Source of the DNA: Escherichia phage Phi1
Sequence record: EF437941
Length of the DNA stretch: 64,000 nucleotides
Strand: one strand, 5' to 3'
In this document: one piece after another, positions 41,401 to 56,158 of the stretch
Layout of the letters: each line of letters opens with the position of its first letter
Position numbering within the stretch: the stretch's first letter is position 1
The notes under the pieces: generated by a model
What the model was told of the DNA's origin: nothing
Databases searched by the model: none
What the model saw: the letters and a program-made list of their open reading frames with translations, nothing else
Translations under genes and position numbers: made by a program

Positions 41401-41528
41401 GTCCACTGTTTGACCAGTCGGCGGTAACATTCTCTATGTTCCGTGAACTTGTAGATAAACGGTTGAAGGATAATATAGGGAATCCACGCGATCCGAAGAA
41501 TCCGACACAGAGGAAAATTAATGGCTAA
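38442..41528 (+). CDS. 7: baseplate wedge protein gp7
   Basis: 1028 aa; synteny. Confidence 0.8.
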   Translation: MIKAPSVTSLTIEKLSANQAYITWDDVGENFFYFVELAETRTRDGEVIPVDELSWVNLGYTAEQNWFEDKNLFPEYYYKFRVAVAAEGFEQSKWVETEEFQTFKTNAYNFSMMREFNLANEFVKQKFTYDNRDYIKFNTDLIQASLMKEDFVFSPEYANMTNISNYIVVDENFHEIQDHIEKVCTDINRTMLAEMNGVLYLFERFQPIVKVSNDKGQSWKAYKAFNDRVGNPVSRTCVYQSKTTTYVLGYDRIFYGRQASDTRWIADDVRFSDDTITFAKVGDENDLGFDVEVFGVFSRLTGDTTKYAEAMACSDDYLWVGAKDVIRRIRLKNTPVDTVQGSPTFGEKIFDPDVIRVTGNDKAVIQKMDVIDGKLLVFVTGEVKQRYQDPTKPENVVPSDDAGVYLIGSDGLSFQRVFGNTPQEREYIQHGFSNMSTNGDEVFISHYNHHFESILPDPETAAKYELGEAVKYSQEPTYLTDKKIHQTTFRASYDDLRIWELGPQAYYNEADYTWMRRNGVRVWITNDNRPLVVYPEVIYTQEVDTSGILDQNRVNREVYDKGTVTCYLNNVKFEGFKQYASGVMFHKNTGEIIGFYQFNYRVRDQVGVYWKPTNVAFVAELQNQVREVPWVPVHYDREQDPDLRPLLNKMTPDSFLLENENFRKFSEYYLQFLSDGSGTYYNKLKNLIKNKYPREQDAYEYLWSEMNKRNIYADKNKRDAVVRFFESRKSDFYSTKGVEASYKFLFKLLYNEDVEIEVESQAGLEYDIVVSSTNIDEDIVGRTIYTPTGRANVTYLEREYEGGRLRWRVTIHNLIGRFEEGQVIKSEKTAFEGMILVGVRGKELLSSSIDYINRSRSQYTMKIKSALPVSRYANDVMRFVHPVGFGFIGVTLLTMFINSGLSMKHTETIIQSLKNYKFDSGLPSVYPDRVADLDVDGNIKKDPLTGKALYLTSPLIGDEFPVPPEYDQENSELFHGLKASERRFAMSPLFDQSAVTFSMFRELVDKRLKDNIGNPRDPKNPTQRKING

Positions 41529-42516
41529 TGAAAATAGTGTGATCTATCGCTCAATCATTACTAGTAAATTCAGAACGGAAAAACTTCTGAATTTCTATAA
41601 TTCTGTAGGCGATGGGGCAAATCAAATTACAATTTATGGAACGTTTGGACGTTCGGAGCCGTGGTCAGAAAACGAAAAAGAGGTGGGCTTTGCCCCACCT
41701 TATCCGACCGATTCAACGGCTGGTGTTGTTGACATGTGGACCCATATGATGGGGGCGGTTAAGATTAACAAATCACTTCTTGATGCGGTTATCCCTCGTA
41801 AAGATTGGGGTGATACCGGACAGGATAACCCGCGCACATTCTTTATCAATGACATTGTTGTTGTCAACTCAGCACCATATAACCGAACTGATGTTGGTAG
41901 CGGCTGGATGGTGTATCGCGTAACCGATGTTCCTGATCGCGGTTACTGCTCGATTTCAAGCATTGACGCTAAAGTAGAGTGTTTGAAGTTGGGCGGAAAG
42001 TGGACACCCACTCATGAATCAATTGCGCCACCTGTAGGAAAGGGCGATTCTATTGATATGGGTGATGGGTATCGTTGGGAATATCTGTACACAATTCCAC
42101 CTGATGCGGCGATCAACCGTTGCACCAATGAACATATTGTTGTTCCATTCCCGGATGAATTGAGACAAGATCCGGCGCGTTGGGGCTATGACAATGTGAT
42201 CACCTGGTATAATGACTATAATCTGCTTTATCGGCTGAAAGTAGTAACTTTGCGTTTTCAGGCTTATATGGACTCTGCGCAATTCCCAACTACCGCGTTA
42301 GTGGGTAATACTGGTTTCCGTCAGTTAAGCATTATCCTTAACCCATTGGAAAAGAAAGCACGCCCTAGCGATCCAGACGTTAAAGCGGTTCAAGATAAGT
42401 ACCGTCCGCAAGACTTAGAGCCACACTCAGGAGAAATGATCTACATGGAAAACCGACAACCTATCGTTCGGTCATTAGATCAAACAGAACTTGTTTCTGT
42501 ATTGTTTGAGTTCTAA
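41521..42516 (+). CDS. 8: baseplate wedge protein gp8
   Basis: 331 aa; synteny. Confidence 0.8.
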   Translation: MANENSVIYRSIITSKFRTEKLLNFYNSVGDGANQITIYGTFGRSEPWSENEKEVGFAPPYPTDSTAGVVDMWTHMMGAVKINKSLLDAVIPRKDWGDTGQDNPRTFFINDIVVVNSAPYNRTDVGSGWMVYRVTDVPDRGYCSISSIDAKVECLKLGGKWTPTHESIAPPVGKGDSIDMGDGYRWEYLYTIPPDAAINRCTNEHIVVPFPDELRQDPARWGYDNVITWYNDYNLLYRLKVVTLRFQAYMDSAQFPTTALVGNTGFRQLSIILNPLEKKARPSDPDVKAVQDKYRPQDLEPHSGEMIYMENRQPIVRSLDQTELVSVLFEF

Positions 42517-42568: not shown

Positions 42569-42597
42569 TTTACAATCTTGTCTGGTAAAGGTATAAT
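42569..42597 (+). promoter_or_regulatory. sigma70-type promoter driving the inserted methyltransferase cassette
   Basis: TTTACA-N17-TATAAT, then RBS GGAGGAGG and ATG at 42630. Confidence 0.6.
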
Positions 42598-42629
42598 GCT
42601 CACATCTAAACAACGGAGGAGGATAAATT

Positions 42630-42887
42630 ATGGCACGTCGTAAATTTACAGATAATTGTGAAGCAATTCAGGTATCCCCTTGCGGTTGGGATGTGATCGC
42701 GAACGGTGAAAAGATTGGAGAGATCATCGATCATACTCATTCATCACTAGCCGATTACACCGATGAACTATGGGAGGGTATCAACTTCATGAATGACACT
42801 AAACGATTCAAGACTATCGACGAAGCTATCTATTTTGTGTATAATCCAACTTTCGGTATGTGGGGAACTAGAAAATGGCACGCGTAA
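42630..42887 (+). CDS. hypothetical protein (first gene of inserted cassette)
   Basis: 85-aa ORF with strong RBS GGAGGAGG behind a sigma70-like promoter. Confidence 0.55.
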   Translation: MARRKFTDNCEAIQVSPCGWDVIANGEKIGEIIDHTHSSLADYTDELWEGINFMNDTKRFKTIDEAIYFVYNPTFGMWGTRKWHA

Positions 42888-43207
42888 ATATTAAATTGCA
42901 TTACACAATGAATAAAGCTAAGTTCCCAATGCAAAAGCATTACTATGGTCTACGTGCACAAGATCCCAAACTCTATGGTACTCATTGGTTTTGTAAACAT
43001 GATAACCAATGGCACACATACGAAGAAATGAACGAGATGATGAAACAGGGTATTGAATTTAGTTATTCTAACTATGACCATCGTATAACTTGCATTCGAA
43101 AATTGAAACGATGGATTCGTAAGAATCCGCAATTTAAAAACTTTGTGTTCTTTATGTCTCATGTTTATTTGGGACATAGCGTTACCGTCACAGCAAAGGT
43201 TAAATAA
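42875..43207 (+). CDS. hypothetical protein (second gene of inserted cassette)
   Basis: 110-aa ORF overlapping both neighbours (translational coupling). Confidence 0.55.
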   Translation: MARVNIKLHYTMNKAKFPMQKHYYGLRAQDPKLYGTHWFCKHDNQWHTYEEMNEMMKQGIEFSYSNYDHRITCIRKLKRWIRKNPQFKNFVFFMSHVYLGHSVTVTAKVK

Positions 43208-44046
43208 TGGCACGACTTTCTAAACAAGAACAAAAATTACATAACCGAGCAATGGAGTTGATTAATTCAGATCGTCCATTGACATATGAAGAAAAAGAAT
43301 TTTGCTATAATAACTATCATGGCGATGGGCTAGGTGGTTCCGGTGCATTCTTTACCCCAGAAGGGCTTGCATGGGATTTTACCATCGATGCACATTGCAC
43401 AGGAAAAGTATTAGATCTTTGTGCTGGGATCGGTCGCTTATCTTTTTGTATGTTACATCGTTGTAAGCCAGAAAAGATCGTATGCGTCGAACTCAATCCA
43501 GAATTTGCGCGGATTGGCAAGCGACTATTACCGGAGGCAGAATGGATCACCAGCGATGTATTCGAATTTGAGTCAAACGAAAAATTCGATGTGGTGATCA
43601 GCAATCCACCCTTCGGGAAAATCAATACAACCGACACAAAGGATGTATTTGAGTACACTGGCGGCGAATTTGAATTTAAGGTTATGACATTAGGCCAGAA
43701 GTTTGCCGATGTAGGTTATTTTATTGTTCCTTCTGGTTCCGCTGGTTTTGCCTATTCCGGCAGACCTTATTATGACGGGACCATGAAGTCTAATAAATAT
43801 CTAAAATGGAGCAAACAAACTGGTTTGGTGACTTATGCCGGATGTGGGATCGATACATCAATCTATCGCGATGAATGGCATAGTACCAACGTTTTAACAG
43901 AAGTGGTTGAGGTTCGGTATTACGAAAAAGAAGCCGTAGAAGCTCCTAAATCACGTCCTAACGAACAAATAGAAGAAAGTAAGGAGATTACCTTACCGAA
44001 ACAGGAAAGCGAGTCTGGGACGCTCTCAGATTTGTTTGACATTTAA
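43207..44046 (+). CDS. SAM-dependent amino-methyltransferase (N6-adenine-type, gamma-class motif order)
   Basis: FFTP motif, motif I VLDLCAGIG, motif IV NPPF in that order; 279 aa; start overlaps the upstream stop. Confidence 0.75.
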   Translation: MARLSKQEQKLHNRAMELINSDRPLTYEEKEFCYNNYHGDGLGGSGAFFTPEGLAWDFTIDAHCTGKVLDLCAGIGRLSFCMLHRCKPEKIVCVELNPEFARIGKRLLPEAEWITSDVFEFESNEKFDVVISNPPFGKINTTDTKDVFEYTGGEFEFKVMTLGQKFADVGYFIVPSGSAGFAYSGRPYYDGTMKSNKYLKWSKQTGLVTYAGCGIDTSIYRDEWHSTNVLTEVVEVRYYEKEAVEAPKSRPNEQIEESKEITLPKQESESGTLSDLFDI

Positions 44047-44086: not shown

Positions 44087-44094
44087 TATAAATA
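44087..44094 (+). promoter_or_regulatory. T4-type late promoter (TATAAATA) for gene 9
   Basis: Exact TATAAATA ~28 nt upstream of the ATG. Confidence 0.65.
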
Positions 44095-44121: not shown

Positions 44122-44976
44122 ATGGCACAAGTTCCAAAGAAAAGAATAGACACAGGTACTGTCGGCAATCCATCGACTGGCGATATCTTATATGATGGCG
44201 GTAATAAAATTAACGATAACTTTGATTCAATATATGACGCATTTGCTGATCAGCGGTTTAAAGACGTAGACCACGGCGTGGGAAGAATGGTTATTCATGC
44301 AACCGGATACTATCAGAAGCATCCACGTCAAAGCTACGCTGGTTCCGCTGTTGAGATTGGGAGTCTACACGATATCGATACAACTCAAGGCGCACTTATT
44401 GCTATTCTACCTAAAGCAAAGGTTGGCGAGGGTGTTGTATTCATAAATAGTAACGGTAGCCTTTCAACGACTACACCGCTCAATATTCGAACTCAAGCAG
44501 GTGATTCTATTAGCGGGTATTCCGGTGATGCTACAATAACACAACCATTTTCAAAAGTCACTGTTTGGTGTACTGCCGTTGAAGGTAGTCGCGTAACATG
44601 GCGATTGGGTATCGAAAGTATGTTTACCGATACAACAACGCCATTAGATAAAACAGTTAACGTAACTGGAGTAGCAACAAACGTTGCTATTGCCGCAAAA
44701 ACAGAATATGTTTCCATCAAATTATTAACTACCGCTAGCAATACATCCGGTTCAAAAATGCGTTCAAGTGAAACGCTACTGATGATTGATTCTAAAGCCG
44801 GAAAAGTTTATGCGACGGAATATGCAGTTTTGCAGAAGACAGAAGATGAACTATACACGGTTCGTTATTTCATCGGTTCCGGCGATAAAGTATATGCAGA
44901 GTATAAGGCTACTGGCGAAAATATTCGTTTAGCAGTTAAAGCCGTAGACACTATTAAAATCGGGGTTGCTACATGA
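44122..44976 (+). CDS. 9: baseplate wedge / tail fibre socket protein gp9
   Basis: 284 aa; late promoter TATAAATA upstream; synteny. Confidence 0.8.
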   Translation: MAQVPKKRIDTGTVGNPSTGDILYDGGNKINDNFDSIYDAFADQRFKDVDHGVGRMVIHATGYYQKHPRQSYAGSAVEIGSLHDIDTTQGALIAILPKAKVGEGVVFINSNGSLSTTTPLNIRTQAGDSISGYSGDATITQPFSKVTVWCTAVEGSRVTWRLGIESMFTDTTTPLDKTVNVTGVATNVAIAAKTEYVSIKLLTTASNTSGSKMRSSETLLMIDSKAGKVYATEYAVLQKTEDELYTVRYFIGSGDKVYAEYKATGENIRLAVKAVDTIKIGVAT

Positions 44977-48833: not shown

Positions 48834-50602
48834 TGATTGAACAATTAAACATCCACGAGATCCCACATGTTGACGGTGTACCAAGCGAAGGACAGCACCG
48901 TATTATTTGGATCAAGAATGGCGAATGTTTAAGCGCAGCAACGACACAGACTGGCAATGACGGGACGCTTAACCGCGCCCCGGTTGCAATTCAAGAAAAC
49001 GTTGCACGCGTAAACGAAAACGCAAAATCAACCGTCGCTAAAGTTAACGAGGTTGTAACGGCGGTTAACGATATTAAAACAACTTTAGGGGTAATTTCTG
49101 ACGGAAGTATCATTGATGTGGTTAACCAGACTGTCGCAAAAGTTGAATCCGTCGAAGAGAACTTAGGAGAAACAGCAAGAACTCTGCAAACAACGGTAGA
49201 CGCTGTATCAGAACTTAACATCAAGATTGGTGATCGCCCCGCTGCCGATCCGAGCACAAGAACAATCTATGATGACATTTCTTTCATCAAACAAGAAATG
49301 GGTTCTTATCCTAACTTTAATATCAATGGTTCCCCTGATGCTGGCAGTTCCGGTTCTGGCATCAAATACCGAGTTATTCAGAATACCGCAGCATTAAATG
49401 ACCACGGTCGCCGAATCGTTCAGCTTGAAAACGACTGGCAAGATTCTGACGTAGGCGAGTTAACAAGACAAGTTAACAAAATGCGCAGTGAGATCGGCGA
49501 CACGTCTCTTGCAACACAAGAAAATGTGTATGTTCGTCTCCGCACCAACGCAAGAAACATTGCTAACATATCAAACGAAGTTCTAGAAGTCAAGAAAGCA
49601 ATTTTGTTTGATTCAATCCCTGATATCGGGACTAAAGTCACTACTCTGGGAACTAATTATGAACTTCTAAACAATGATGTTAATGGTGTAGATTCTGGTA
49701 TTCGTCCTCGTCTTCTGGCTGTCGAGAATAAGATCGGAACGCCTCAATCGGCTGGAAGCATTGATTATCGATTAACCAACACAGAGCGAGAATTTTTAGA
49801 TCTTAAACAGGTTGTTGGTGTAAGCGGTGCTGACGGTTTGCGCGGTGAAGTTGTTCGACTTTCCAATGAGATTGGCACTGACAGCGATCGACATACTCTA
49901 GCCGGACGTCTTAAAGTTGTAGAAAACACTCAGGGTCGGTTAGAAGCAAGCGTACAGGACATGGAACAGATTGTAGGTGATCGCGAATCAGGTTTGACCG
50001 CTGGCGTTATTAAACTATCAAGTGATATCTATGGCGATGATGGTTCAGAAGATCCATTTACTCAGAAAGGCGTGATTAAAATCGTCAAAGAGCTACAAAC
50101 ATCTAACGGAAACAAAGTAGATGATGTACCTGATGACGGTTTCCATTATCTGCGTAAGCGCGGAGAATGGGTGCAAGTTGCATATGCTGCTGGAGCATTT
50201 AAAAATACCGCAGATATTACGGTTGAACTCGACGAACAGGATGTTTATAAACCGATTCCGCTTAACGACATGGCGGCAGAAGTTAATGCTCGTCAAATGG
50301 TGAAAAGTGAATCTGTTGTTACCGTTCAGGACAAAGGTTTATTCCGTTGTGTATTCCGTTGTGCTGTACAAGCTCAACATAATGCAACATTCATTGTTGC
50401 GATTTTCAAAAATGGACAGATGGTATATGAAGCGAAAAATGGTCATTACGGCACAGACGAATTGATCAGCTATTCTACCAGTGCTTTCCTAAATATTGAA
50501 AAGGGCGATCAAATTAACATCCGTATTAAGGGTGTATCTGTCGAAGCAGTAGCACAACCAGTACAAATTAAAGAGTTCCTCTTTGGGATTTCTCCGGTAT
50601 AA
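48833..50602 (+). CDS. wac: fibritin (whisker) with extended C-terminal domain
   Basis: N-terminus (VDGVPSEGQHRIIWIKNGE) matches T4 fibritin; foldon-like GFHYLRKRGEWVQV followed by ~135 extra residues. Confidence 0.85.
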   Translation: MIEQLNIHEIPHVDGVPSEGQHRIIWIKNGECLSAATTQTGNDGTLNRAPVAIQENVARVNENAKSTVAKVNEVVTAVNDIKTTLGVISDGSIIDVVNQTVAKVESVEENLGETARTLQTTVDAVSELNIKIGDRPAADPSTRTIYDDISFIKQEMGSYPNFNINGSPDAGSSGSGIKYRVIQNTAALNDHGRRIVQLENDWQDSDVGELTRQVNKMRSEIGDTSLATQENVYVRLRTNARNIANISNEVLEVKKAILFDSIPDIGTKVTTLGTNYELLNNDVNGVDSGIRPRLLAVENKIGTPQSAGSIDYRLTNTEREFLDLKQVVGVSGADGLRGEVVRLSNEIGTDSDRHTLAGRLKVVENTQGRLEASVQDMEQIVGDRESGLTAGVIKLSSDIYGDDGSEDPFTQKGVIKIVKELQTSNGNKVDDVPDDGFHYLRKRGEWVQVAYAAGAFKNTADITVELDEQDVYKPIPLNDMAAEVNARQMVKSESVVTVQDKGLFRCVFRCAVQAQHNATFIVAIFKNGQMVYEAKNGHYGTDELISYSTSAFLNIEKGDQINIRIKGVSVEAVAQPVQIKEFLFGISPV

Positions 50603-50608
50603 GAAATT

Positions 50609-50633
50609 AAAGGGGCGTTAAGCCCCTTTTTCG
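50609..50633 (+). terminator. intrinsic terminator after wac
   Basis: Hairpin AGGGGCGTTAAGCCCCT followed by TTTTTCG. Confidence 0.65.
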
Positions 50634-50647
50634 TTATAGGTGATATT

Positions 50648-51580
50648 ATGTCAGGATATGTAACCAACAACCCAAGAGAATTAAAAGACGCTATTCTGCG
50701 TCGTTTAGGCGCACCAGTAATTAACGTAGAAGTAACAGAAGACCAGATTTACGATTGTATTCAGAGAGCATTAGAACTCTATGGGGAATATCATTTCGAT
50801 GGTGTGAATAAAGGATATAAAGTATTTCGTGTTAGTGCAGAGCAAGCGCAACATGGGGTATTTGATTTGAGCGATTCTGGAGTATTCGCAGTAACTAAAA
50901 TAATTCGAACAAACGTAGGTAGCGCGGCTACGATGGATGGCACTGCCGTTTATCCGTGGTTTACTGACTTTCTGTTGGGTTTAGCGGGTGTAAATGGAGG
51001 TTTAGGATCTGGCTGTAGTAAATTTTATGGTCCAAATGCAATGGGCGGTGATCTAGGATATTTCGAACAGCTTATGAGCTATCGAGCCACTATGCAAAAT
51101 ATGCTTAATCCTCTTCCCGATTACTGGTATAACAGCGCAAACGGACAACTTAAGATTACAGGAAACTTCCGAGAAGGTGATCTCATTGTTGTTGAATTAT
51201 ATGTTAAAAGCTATGTAGACGTTCCTGATATGATCGGCGCGGTTGCTGGTTATGCTCATGCTGGAGGATGTTCTACCGCTGGCGGGATTAGCGCCGTTTA
51301 TGATAATCCAACTGCTGGTTTAAGCGGGATTGTTGCTGGCATGGGACCAATCAGTGAGAACAAACAGGGCGCATATAATAACCGTTGGGTGAAAGATATG
51401 GCTACCGCCTTCACTAAGGAGGTTTGGGGGTCCATCATGGCTAAACATCAAGGTCTGCAATTACCCGGTGGTGTCACTGTTGATGGTATCCGAATCATTG
51501 AAGAAGCACGCGCCGACATTGAGAAATTGCGACAAGAACTAGAATTATTAGATCCTCCGTTCGGCATCCTCATGATTTGA
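50648..51580 (+). CDS. 13: neck protein gp13
   Basis: 310 aa; synteny. Confidence 0.8.
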
Positions 51581-51589
51581 TTAAATGTG

Positions 51590-51631
51590 TTGACTAATAT
51601 GTTCTCGTTAGTGTATGATCTGACGAGAACA
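51590..51631 (+). promoter_or_regulatory. sigma70-like promoter plus inverted repeat upstream of the homing endonuclease gene
   Basis: TTGACT-N18-TATGAT; 9-bp inverted repeat TGTTCTCGT/ACGAGAACA spans the -10; RBS AAAGGAG follows. Confidence 0.45.
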
Positions 51632-51646
51632 TAAAAGGAGAATCAT

Positions 51647-52231
51647 ATGGCATATTATTATCTATATCAAATAACAAATAATTTAAATGGGATGGTCTAT
51701 GTTGGTATGAGAACGTCCAAAAAACCAATAGAAAAGGATTCTTATTGGGGGAGCGGAAAACGAATTAAAAGAGCAATAAAAAAGTATGGAATAGAGAACT
51801 TCACAAAAACTATTCTTTCCACACACAACACGTTAGAAGAACTAGCTTTAGCAGAAAAAAAGATAGTGACTAAGGAATTTGTAGAAAGAGAAGATACATA
51901 TAATATTGCTCTGGGTGGAGTGAATAGAGGTTCTTTGTGGGATGACATGGACGAAGAAACCAAAAATGAAGCAAGAAGAAAAATATCTGAAAAAGCATCC
52001 AGTCGAAAAAGAGAATCTCACTCAGAAGAGACTAAAAATAAAATGAGTCAATCGGCAAAAAATAGAAATAGAGATTGGGAAAATTTTAAAGGCGCAAGAA
52101 AAATTATGGCAGAAGGTGTTCTATACTTAACCACTCAAGAATGTTGTAGAAAGTATGGGATATCAGCCGCTTCTATGAGGAAACGAGTAAAGTCAACCGC
52201 AGAAAAATGGAAGGAGTTTTATTATGTTTGA
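51647..52231 (+). CDS. GIY-YIG homing endonuclease-like protein (freestanding, seg-like)
   Basis: N-terminal YYLYQITN...GMVYVGM (GIY-YIG), NUMOD3-like [13 protein letters not shown]-terminal HTH-like segment. Confidence 0.8.
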
Positions 52232-52964
52232 CTCTACATTATTTGCCAGATTGGAGTCACAGAAGGATTATGAGAACACTAGACAAACAGAAATTCTCAA
52301 TCCTTATGTGAATTTCAATTCACATACAAATACACAAACTCTAGCCGATATTATGGTTGCCGAGTCTATACAAATGCGCGGCGTCGAGATGTACTACATA
52401 CCGAGAGAATTTGTTAAACCTGATATGATATTTGGGGAGGATGTACAAAGCAAATTCACTAAGGCGTGGAAGTTTGCAGCGTACATAAATTCTTTCGATG
52501 GGTATGAGGGCGCTGGCAATTTCTTTCAATCTTTCGGTTATACCGCTAATGATGAATTAACCATAACCATAAATCCAAATTTATTCAAACATCAAGTAGA
52601 CAACAAAGAGCCTAAATCCGGCGATTTGTTTTACATTCCTATGAGCAACGATTTATTCGAAATCTCATACGTCGAGCCATATCAGCCGTTTTTTCAGGCT
52701 GGCAAAAATGCCATGCGTAAAATTATTGCAGAGAAATTCGTGTATAGCGGTGAGGAATTGCGACCAGAATTACAACGCAATGAGGGAATTAATGTTGATG
52801 AGTTTGCGGATCTGGACCTTGCACCAATCACTAATCTGGACGGGTTAACAGATATCAACTTAGATCAGTACAAAGAAGATAAGCAATTCAGAAGCGAAGG
52901 ACAAGATTTTATTGATCCGTTTGATCCTATTAATGGCAAGGGTTCACCTTTCGCCGATTTTTGA
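52224..52964 (+). CDS. 14: neck protein gp14
   Basis: 246 aa; synteny. Confidence 0.8.
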
Positions 52965-53824
52965 TAAATACTCATAAACAAGGGGGTCAAATGTTCGGTT
53001 GGCACTATAATTCGTCAATTAGACGGTATATTGTATTGCTGGGTAATTTATTCTCCGGCGTACAAATTAAAAGGGTGCGTAGCGACGGTGAGCGTTTTAT
53101 TAAAGTTCCTATCACCTACGCAAAGAAAGAAAAATTCATGATGAGTCTGGACAAATATAACAATATCTCAAGTGAGGAAGATGTAGCAAAGGTAGAAACT
53201 ATTTTACCGCGTATGTGTCTTTCTTTGATTGATATGACATACGCCCAGAACTTTAAAACAAATATTGCAAATAAGACAGTACCAAAATATACGGCTGATG
53301 GAATCAGGAGTGTGACACAATATAATCCTGTACCATATAAGTTTACCTTCGAGTTAGGGATTTATACGCGTAACGAAGATGATATGTTTCAGATAATTGA
53401 ACAGATTCTTCCTTACTTCCAGCCTCATTTTAACTGTAAGATTAAAGAACTACACGGTAATGATGTATGGATTGATCGAGATATTCAGGTCACAATTAGT
53501 TCTATTACTCCAGATGAACAGGTAGGCGAAGATAAGTTTTCTCGTCGTCGTCTTGAGTGGACCATTATGTTCGAATTTATCGGCTTTATATATCCTCCAG
53601 CTACCGACGTTAAGGGGGAAATTAGAACGATTTATCTTGATTTTCATGCCAATTCTCGTGAATTGAATCCTAGCGGTAATTTTGAATCAGTGGATCACGA
53701 GGTCGTTAAACGTGACGTCGAGCAAGAAGATTGGGACGGAACTATCAAAGAATCATATTCTAGTGATATTCCAATACCAGTTGCACCGACTCCACCGGGT
53801 CCACGTATTGTAAGAGAATTTTAA
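52961..53824 (+). CDS. 15: tail sheath stabiliser / terminator gp15
   Basis: 287 aa; synteny. Confidence 0.8.
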
Positions 53825-53837
53825 GAGGTAATTTATT

Positions 53838-56158
<2,321 letters not shown>

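Follow-up and report, generated by a model that had tools for sequence, protein, structure and literature searches.

What is an extra gene doing between neck genes 13 and 14 of a T4-type phage, and how did it get there? In T4 these genes are 1 nucleotide (nt) apart, as an earlier note on this DNA had supposed when it called them contiguous. In the window analysed here, a stretch of 64,000 nt from Escherichia phage Phi1 (sequence record EF437941), the same two genes flank an inserted cassette with an open reading frame (ORF), referred to below as seg. The window comes from a Krischvirus (RB49-like, T4-type) coliphage and over positions 50600-53000 is 98.6% identical to ECD7 and 98.0-98.1% identical to kvi and phiS. 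The answer developed here, considered probable, is that seg is a freestanding Seg-type GIY-YIG homing endonuclease gene, one that would spread by intronless homing and would be expressed according to the scheme set out below. The earlier note had read it as a freestanding GIY-YIG gene inserted between genes 13 and 14; the protein domains, the lack of intron RNA, the empty sites in relatives and the core catalytic residues support this.

The seg protein has an I-TevI-like architecture, in which a GIY-YIG nuclease at the N-terminus is joined by a short linker, with a single NUMOD3 motif, to a helix-turn-helix at the C-terminus (Table 1). Profile searches confirmed the GIY-YIG N-terminus proposed earlier, with scores above cut-off in both Pfam (PF19835, SegE_GIY-YIG; 29.5 bits versus 25) and NCBIfam (TIGR01453, "group I intron endonuclease"; 57.9 versus 56.05). 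In addition PHROG_314, a homing endonuclease family, matches the protein at 1e-45. A sequence search of the PDB aligned residues 6-88 to the I-TevI catalytic domain. An AlphaFold model built on 50 homologues has a pLDDT (predicted local distance difference test) of 96-98 for residues 1-90, and its three best PDB matches are the catalytic domain of I-TevI (1MK0, 1LN0) with a probability of 1.0. Residues Y7, N11, G20, Y33, G35-S36-G37, A43, G48, N51, F52, E70, Y85, N86, G90 and G91 are invariant in the 50 homologues and Y18 is nearly so. Core GIY-YIG catalytic residues are present on alignment, Y7, Y18, E70 and N86 corresponding to Y6, Y17, E75 and N90 of I-TevI.

The NUMOD3-like motif and the helix-turn-helix tail of the earlier description are individually below threshold in Pfam, yet both parts find support elsewhere. 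The I-TevI DNA-binding domain structure (1I3J) aligns to residues 110-192 with E = 0.0015; the alignment pairs the NUMOD3 motif of seg with the NUMOD3 region of I-TevI, HSDITKSKISEK, and covers the C-terminal helix-turn-helix too. These weak but consistent matches point to a separate DNA-binding module carried on a linker. There is no zinc finger in the protein, the sole cysteines being C165 and C166.

A search of Rfam over 50600-53000, with E values up to 1, gave no match to any RNA family, and seg is therefore not intron-borne; a group I intron, or another RNA family acting as its carrier, is ruled out for this region. The gene has its own Shine-Dalgarno sequence and ATG and is sited between intact genes 13 and 14. 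Its TGA stop codon (52229-52231) lies beyond the start of gene 14, and the coordinates agree with the 8 base pair (bp) overlap noted earlier. The span proposed then, 51585-52231, was too long on the left, since from 51585 it also includes the promoter-like region ahead of the gene. The Shine-Dalgarno sequence of the essential gene 14 lies inside the last codons of seg, an arrangement also found in the E26 and Brandy-type cassettes described below. Because of this and the overlap, gene 14 expression would be coupled to seg and a simple deletion of seg would be disfavoured. The G+C content of seg is 33.7% and that of the whole cassette 32-34%, against 43.5% for gene 13.

The gene as such is no discovery. 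Its product is identical in all 194 of 194 residues to the "SegC homing endonuclease" of Phi1 (ABR24660.1 / YP_001469494.1). ECD7, kvi and phiS have 99% identical homologues at the same 13/14 position, annotated as homing endonuclease or SegC, and a 2010 review lists one seg-like GIY-YIG gene for phi-1, one for JSE and none for RB49 (Petrov et al. 2010, Table 5; PMC2993671). It is thus an ordinary Seg-type gene, catalogued in these records and in the review and annotated ever since deposition of the Phi1 genome; no experimental basis for the Phi1, ECD7, kvi and phiS annotations was found in the searched literature. "SegC" is a best-hit name only, because T4 SegC is just 35% identical over 97% of the protein and is encoded at a different locus, between genes 5.1 and 5.4. 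The two are not orthologues, and for annotators the label is misleading. In a database of 5.8 billion proteins the nearest relatives outside the protein's own cluster have at most about 60% identity over no more than half of the protein, or about 35-50% over at least about 70% of it.

The junction was compared across 51 non-duplicate Krischvirus records, classed by span length and annotation; nine loci were read directly, the empty site being read in RB49 and pEJ01. This was the comparison that the earlier note had proposed, and it showed that the gene is far from universal in T4-type phages: the junction is empty in T4 and in 38 of the 51 records. The remaining 13 carry one of four different Seg-like genes. 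The window-type seg is present in three (ECD7, kvi and phiS), a 311-residue paralogue in E26, a 271-residue paralogue in Makalu_001, Makalu_002, KFS-EC, PHB13, MIZ4 and MIZ5, and a 214-residue paralogue in G37-3 and G5211, with a frameshifted copy in Brandy. The junction therefore exists in five states, empty and four Seg types, in genomes that are otherwise 92-99% identical. In full-length alignment the paralogues are 24-47% identical to the seg protein, the E26 type being the closest (47%). All of them combine SegE_GIY-YIG, NUMOD3 and I-TevI_DNA-bd, with a varying number of NUMOD3 motifs.

The four genes also differ in how they sit in the DNA. The empty site of RB49 has a 36-bp intergenic region holding a hairpin, GGGGGAGTATTCCCCC. 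In the window and in E26 this native hairpin has been replaced and the start of gene 14 is overlapped, by 8 bp in both. The Makalu cassette is inserted upstream of a retained native hairpin, while that of Brandy and G37-3 interrupts the hairpin, the 5' arm of which serves as a Shine-Dalgarno sequence. The Brandy copy of the 214-residue gene (locus L005, 2483-3143) is 1 nt shorter than the G37-3 copy (L011, 2500-3144); the sole annotated piece is a 141-residue C-terminal ORF that lacks the GIY-YIG half. Either the Brandy copy is decaying or its frameshift is an error of sequencing.

A fifth Seg-like gene (251 residues, 42% identical over 170 residues) was seen one junction further on, between genes 14 and 15, in JSE (L010, 2501-3256) and also in SAP, TB34, AV108, FL20, G2494, MIZ4 and MIZ5. 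An extended -10-like sequence, TGATATAAT, lies upstream of it. MIZ4 and MIZ5 appear to have Seg genes at both the 13/14 and the 14/15 junction.

The seg gene is accompanied by foreign DNA on one side. When the window is compared with RB49 in a sliding scan, identity is 97-100% on both sides of the first ~450 nt of gene 14 and 70-80% within it. In this tract 110 of 462 nt differ from RB49, with 75 synonymous and 16 non-synonymous codon differences; beyond it only 2 of 279 nt (0.7%) differ. To the left, gene 13 is RB49-like up to its stop codon, with 28 synonymous and no non-synonymous codon differences from RB49. The same foreign tract accompanies seg in all carriers, phiS having a variant of the allele. 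Each of the other Seg types has a foreign flank of its own: ~430 nt of the 3' end of gene 13 in the E26 type, the last ~40 nt of gene 13 in the Makalu type and the first ~100 nt of gene 14 in the Brandy type. The gene 14 of ECD7 (L001, 3126-3878) has in addition a 1-nt gap near its 3' end (alignment column 718), which produces a frameshift and an annotated ORF of 753 nt; it probably reflects an error in sequencing or a variant C-terminus.

Among the carriers the cassette is much more uniform than the genes around it. The seg gene differs by 0.17-0.69% and the gene 14 tract by 0.65% (3.3% in phiS), against 2.3-4.1% for gene 13 and 1.6-2.5% for gene 15, so that divergence in the seg cassette is 3-20 times lower than in the flanks. 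The backgrounds in which it resides also differ; the C-terminus of wac is RB49-like in the window and only 71-83% identical in ECD7. Patchy presence, low G+C content, a sharply bounded foreign tract and low divergence relative to the flanks are, as read from the sequences, clear traces of horizontal spread of seg. The tract that all carriers share and the low divergence of the cassette are also indirect evidence that flanking DNA was co-converted with the gene.

The foreign gene 14 allele also occurs, in part, in phages lacking the window-type seg. In pEJ01, which has an empty junction, gene 14 (L006, 2519-3259) is of RB49 type over nt 1-135 and of the foreign type over nt ~141-450. In Makalu_002, which has a Makalu-type Seg at the junction, gene 14 (L007, 3388-4128) carries the foreign allele over nt ~322-450. 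These two could be resistant alleles without the window-type seg, or simple recombinants. The donor of the tract was sought in several collections and found in none of them. Apart from the seg-positive phages, pEJ01 and Makalu_002, nothing above 79% identity was found in the phage collection; IMG/VR gave only ECD7, an exact 24-mer was absent from metagenome contigs, and the best metagenome protein matches, 90% and 87%, were at the level of the RB49-type allele.

Mosaicism in this region is not confined to gene 14. In the 3' part of wac (fibritin), positions 50200-50550, the window and RB49 are 96-100% identical; ECD7 and E26, almost perfect matches to the window on either side of this segment, drop to 71-83% identity within it. 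The C-terminus of this receptor-sensing whisker appears to have been swapped independently of seg.

The cassette has a promoter-like site of its own. The sigma-70-like promoter of the earlier note was found. It has an 18-nt spacer and 10 of 12 consensus matches, and no other plus-strand site between 43 and 64 kb reaches 10/12. In the early region (0-33 kb) the minus strand is rich in sites of this quality. The 9-bp inverted repeat in which the promoter was said to be embedded, TGTTCTCGT (51600-51608) and ACGAGAACA (51623-51631), is real; however, it is only part of a stem of 14 bp, with the -10 hexamer in the loop. The stem-loop has a folding energy of -19.9 kcal/mol (z = -7.2), and none of 200 shuffled sequences folds as well. 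A T4-type late promoter, TATAAATA, was not found upstream of seg, the nearest plus-strand copies being at 44087 and 56151.

The homologous site in E26 has the same design: TTTACA and TATAAT separated by 17 nt, and a hairpin of -21.1 kcal/mol with the -10 hexamer as its loop. Three stem pairs are kept in E26 by double changes (U-A to C-G, A-U to C-G and A-U to U-A), and such compensatory changes argue for selection on base pairing. Other hairpins just after gene 13 are the native one (-12.9 kcal/mol) and that of Makalu (-12.4 kcal/mol). Since a hairpin follows gene 13 in all examined junction states except Brandy/G37-3, it may equally serve the 3' end of the gene 13 mRNA. We infer a regulatory role for the seg promoter and hairpin together.

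Two further sequence elements were noted around gene 13 and the seg start. Between wac and gene 13, at 50609-50629, is a strong hairpin that resembles a bidirectional terminator, AAAGGGGC-GTTAA-GCCCCTTT with a T run after it; no late promoter TATAAATA was found between this hairpin and gene 13. A minus-strand sigma-70-like site (51670-51642; TTGATA-17-TATGAT, 10/12) runs across the seg start, antisense into gene 13, and is probably a chance match in AT-rich DNA. An operator for autorepression was also sought, in the form of a promoter region that mimics the homing site, as is the case for I-TevI. Local alignment of positions 51581-51650, and of their E26 equivalent, with the RB49 13-14 region was no better than with shuffled sequences (score 9 against a shuffle mean of 10.5, 292 of 300 shuffles scoring at least as high), and this candidate was rejected.

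How such a gene would spread can be proposed from the precedent of T4 SegF and SegG. When a seg-positive phage and a seg-less Krischvirus infect the same cell, the enzyme would break both strands of the seg-less genome, within the 5' half of gene 14 or close to it. Recombinational repair templated by the seg-positive genome would then copy seg together with the adjoining stretch of gene 14, and the ~24% divergence of that stretch would protect the carrier from cleavage by its own enzyme. The one-sided tract and the partial tracts in seg-less phages suggest that the cut falls within gene 14, beyond nt ~140, which is a prediction only.

For expression, the scheme starts from the position of the -10 hexamer in the hairpin loop. 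This puts the predicted start of early transcripts from the cassette promoter at about 51626, inside the 3' arm; with the 5' arm absent the hairpin cannot form, and the ribosome-binding site would be free. Late transcripts reading through from gene 13 would contain both arms and would fold the -20 kcal/mol hairpin, which ends 2 nt before the Shine-Dalgarno sequence. In these transcripts the hairpin probably damps translation of Seg, or stands in for the displaced native hairpin by stabilising the 3' end of the gene 13 mRNA, or both.

A number of points weigh against this reading. In the searched literature no cleavage or homing experiment on the seg protein was found. The C-terminal half of the AlphaFold model is of low confidence, and the alignments did not place an equivalent of the catalytic Arg27 of I-TevI, the candidates being R22, R39 and R42. 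The short linker has one sub-threshold NUMOD3 and the protein no zinc finger, and the paralogues at the same site have 3 to ~5 NUMOD3 motifs; the protein could thus have arisen by shortening and have changed or lost its activity. Locally, over 2.8 kb, promoter-like sites are no more frequent than chance predicts (9 found, 8.6 expected), and the hairpin excludes the Shine-Dalgarno sequence, so that translational control of seg is conjecture. Ordinary crossovers, which are frequent in T4-type phages, can also yield gene 14 mosaics and can explain pEJ01, and the right boundary that the tracts share, near nt 450 of gene 14, may simply mark where the first recombination took place. The short linker and the unplaced arginine would suit a defunct or domesticated endonuclease, one that no longer cuts and is kept for the ribosome-binding site and start context of gene 14 and for the cassette promoter and hairpin, perhaps acting only as a DNA-binding regulator. 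The location of the gene 14 Shine-Dalgarno sequence fits this too, regulatory signals inside an endonuclease gene being known to favour its retention (PMC2988022), and the frameshifted Brandy copy suggests that decay of a Seg gene occurs at this site. Yet the seg ORF is intact and 99-100% identical in Phi1 (Georgia), kvi (Denmark), phiS (China) and ECD7, and it retains every GIY-YIG core residue that is invariant over the 50 homologues. The cassette is moreover much younger than its flanks, which indicates recent spread rather than passive retention. Loss of function is therefore judged unlikely.

The same mosaics raise the question of whether the nuclease is needed for the spread. The cassette might move by general homologous recombination only, hitch-hiking with a favoured gene 14 allele while its own nuclease stays idle. 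The seg-less recombinants pEJ01 and Makalu_002, the 16 non-synonymous differences in the tract, and mosaics elsewhere that lie next to no endonuclease gene (the wac C-terminus, for example) all fit this. Such a process does not readily account for four independent Seg genes at one junction and a fifth at 14/15, nor for the foreign tract adjacent to each Seg, the pattern expected of endonuclease-driven conversion (PMC2988022; PMC10448857), and it is given little credence. Least probable is an ancestral Krischvirus gene that was never mobile at 13/14 and was lost from most lineages. The presence of a seg-family gene at the junction in 13 of 51 records would be compatible with it. Those 13 occupants, however, are four different proteins with different insertion points and different linked foreign flanks, and the empty sites keep an intact 36-bp intergenic region with its conserved hairpin. 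The low G+C content of seg, its low divergence relative to the flanks and its presence irrespective of flank relatedness also speak against ancestry. A mobile, freestanding Seg-type endonuclease gene is thus the preferred reading.

Table 1. Features of the 13/14 junction in the window, with positions counted from the first letter of the stretch
Feature	Coordinates	Strand	Details
seg-like homing endonuclease gene	51647..52231	+	194 residues, ATG start
GIY-YIG domain	51647-51922	+	residues ~1-92; Pfam, NCBIfam, PDB, model
NUMOD3 motif	52019-52060	+	residues 125-138; Pfam E = 0.038, sub-threshold
I-TevI-like helix-turn-helix	52088-52222	+	residues 148-192; I-TevI_DNA-bd E = 6.6e-4, below gathering score
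Inserted cassette (promoter, hairpin, seg gene)	51583..52223	+	from junction alignments; replaces the 34-bp RB49 intergenic sequence including the native GGGGGAGTATTCCCCC hairpin
Sigma-70 (early-type) promoter-like site	51590..51619	+	TTGACT (51590-51595), 18 nt, TATGAT (51614-51619); 10/12 matches
14-bp stem-loop	51598..51633	+	arms 51598-51611 and 51620-51633; loop 51612-51619 with the -10 hexamer
Shine-Dalgarno AAGGAG of seg	51635..51640	+	sequence reading; 2 nt past hairpin base, 6 nt before ATG
Shine-Dalgarno AAGGAG of essential gene 14	52211..52216	+	sequence reading; inside last seg codons
Foreign stretch linked to seg (5' ~450 nt of gene 14)	52224..52673	+	~24% divergence from every seg-less Krischvirus allele
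Gene 13 (neck protein / head-tail adaptor), left flank	50648..51580	+	PHROG_211 head-tail adaptor Ad2, 4e-40
Gene 14 (neck protein / head closure), right flank	52224..52964	+	Pfam T4_neck-protein, 1e-101

A wider picture of the neck module is possible, and it is offered tentatively. The module may be a contested landing pad, with four or more Seg lineages in competition for the 13/14 junction and a fifth settled at 14/15, each with an "immunity" flank and a replacement hairpin. The lineage shared by the window and E26 would mirror the switch of T4 I-TevI, segB and e: an early sigma-70 promoter in a hairpin loop, with early, hairpin-free transcripts translated and late read-through damped. The cleavage site would lie in gene 14 past nt ~140, that is from ~52364 on. 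If cleavage there is true, pEJ01 and Makalu_002 would be natural products of "marker exclusion without gene transfer".

Useful details, all in line with established knowledge, are the hotspot, the foreign flank of seg and a promoter-in-hairpin that is conserved. The value of seg is as a clean natural case of intronless homing, in which foreign flanks, a frameshifted copy and seg-less recombinant alleles are all visible. The junction system suits the study of competition between endonucleases, of the evolution of self-immunity and of the endonuclease life cycle in therapeutic coliphages.

Some observations concern the neighbouring genes and other parts of the structural cluster. The gene 13 product found no match in a Pfam search, and the gene is annotated gp13 in ECD7 and RB49. 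Three extra plus-strand ORFs lie at 42569-44046 between baseplate genes 8 (41521-42516) and 9 (44122-44976). They encode proteins of 85 and 110 residues and a 279-residue methyltransferase with an NPPF motif (Pfam MTS 1e-9, Eco57I 1e-6), and a near-consensus early-type promoter (TTTACA-17-TATAAT, at 42569) stands before them; the whole is one more early-type cassette within the late structural cluster. For the large terminase gene 17 the annotated length is 2817 nt in ECD7 (L001, 5233 on), kvi (L008, 5235 on) and Makalu_002 (L007, 5496 on), against 1824 nt in the window (54332-56155) and RB49. The gap in length suggests an insertion (such as an intein, intron or fused endonuclease) in some Krischviruses.

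Among the known systems, T4 SegC belongs to the same family and length class as the seg protein; its gene lies outside the neck module. T4 SegF and SegG resemble seg in being freestanding and intergenic with a linked foreign flanking tract. Freestanding endonucleases have cleavage sites hundreds to thousands of bp from their genes, and co-conversion explains marker exclusion (PMC2988022); a distant cleavage site is accordingly to be expected here. For SegF and SegG the cleavage sites and co-conversion gradients were measured, whereas here they are deduced only from natural mosaics. In the same review segF and segG are described as lacking promoters (PMC2988022), unlike the seg cassette with its own promoter-like site.

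I-TevI of the T4 td intron shares with seg the GIY-YIG fold, a NUMOD3-like linker element, the C-terminal helix-turn-helix and a promoter in a hairpin. It is itself intron-encoded and 245 residues long, has a 75-residue linker and a zinc finger, and cuts 23-25 bp from its insertion site. The seg gene has no intron and its protein no zinc finger, its promoter is of the early sigma-70 type rather than late, and its hairpin abuts the Shine-Dalgarno sequence and leaves it uncovered; an operator resembling the homing site was not found by local alignment. Control by a promoter in a hairpin is known for I-TevI, segB and mobE, and for I-TevI only one class of transcript folds the hairpin (PMC2988022). 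In seg43(25) of Aeromonas phage 25, too, a hairpin of high stability immediately precedes a ribosome-binding site that it does not sequester (PMC2988022); phage, gene and site are different, and the function of the hairpin is putative in both cases. A further parallel is found at the same junction, in the E26 type, where the promoter-in-hairpin and the overlap with gene 14 are common to both genes.

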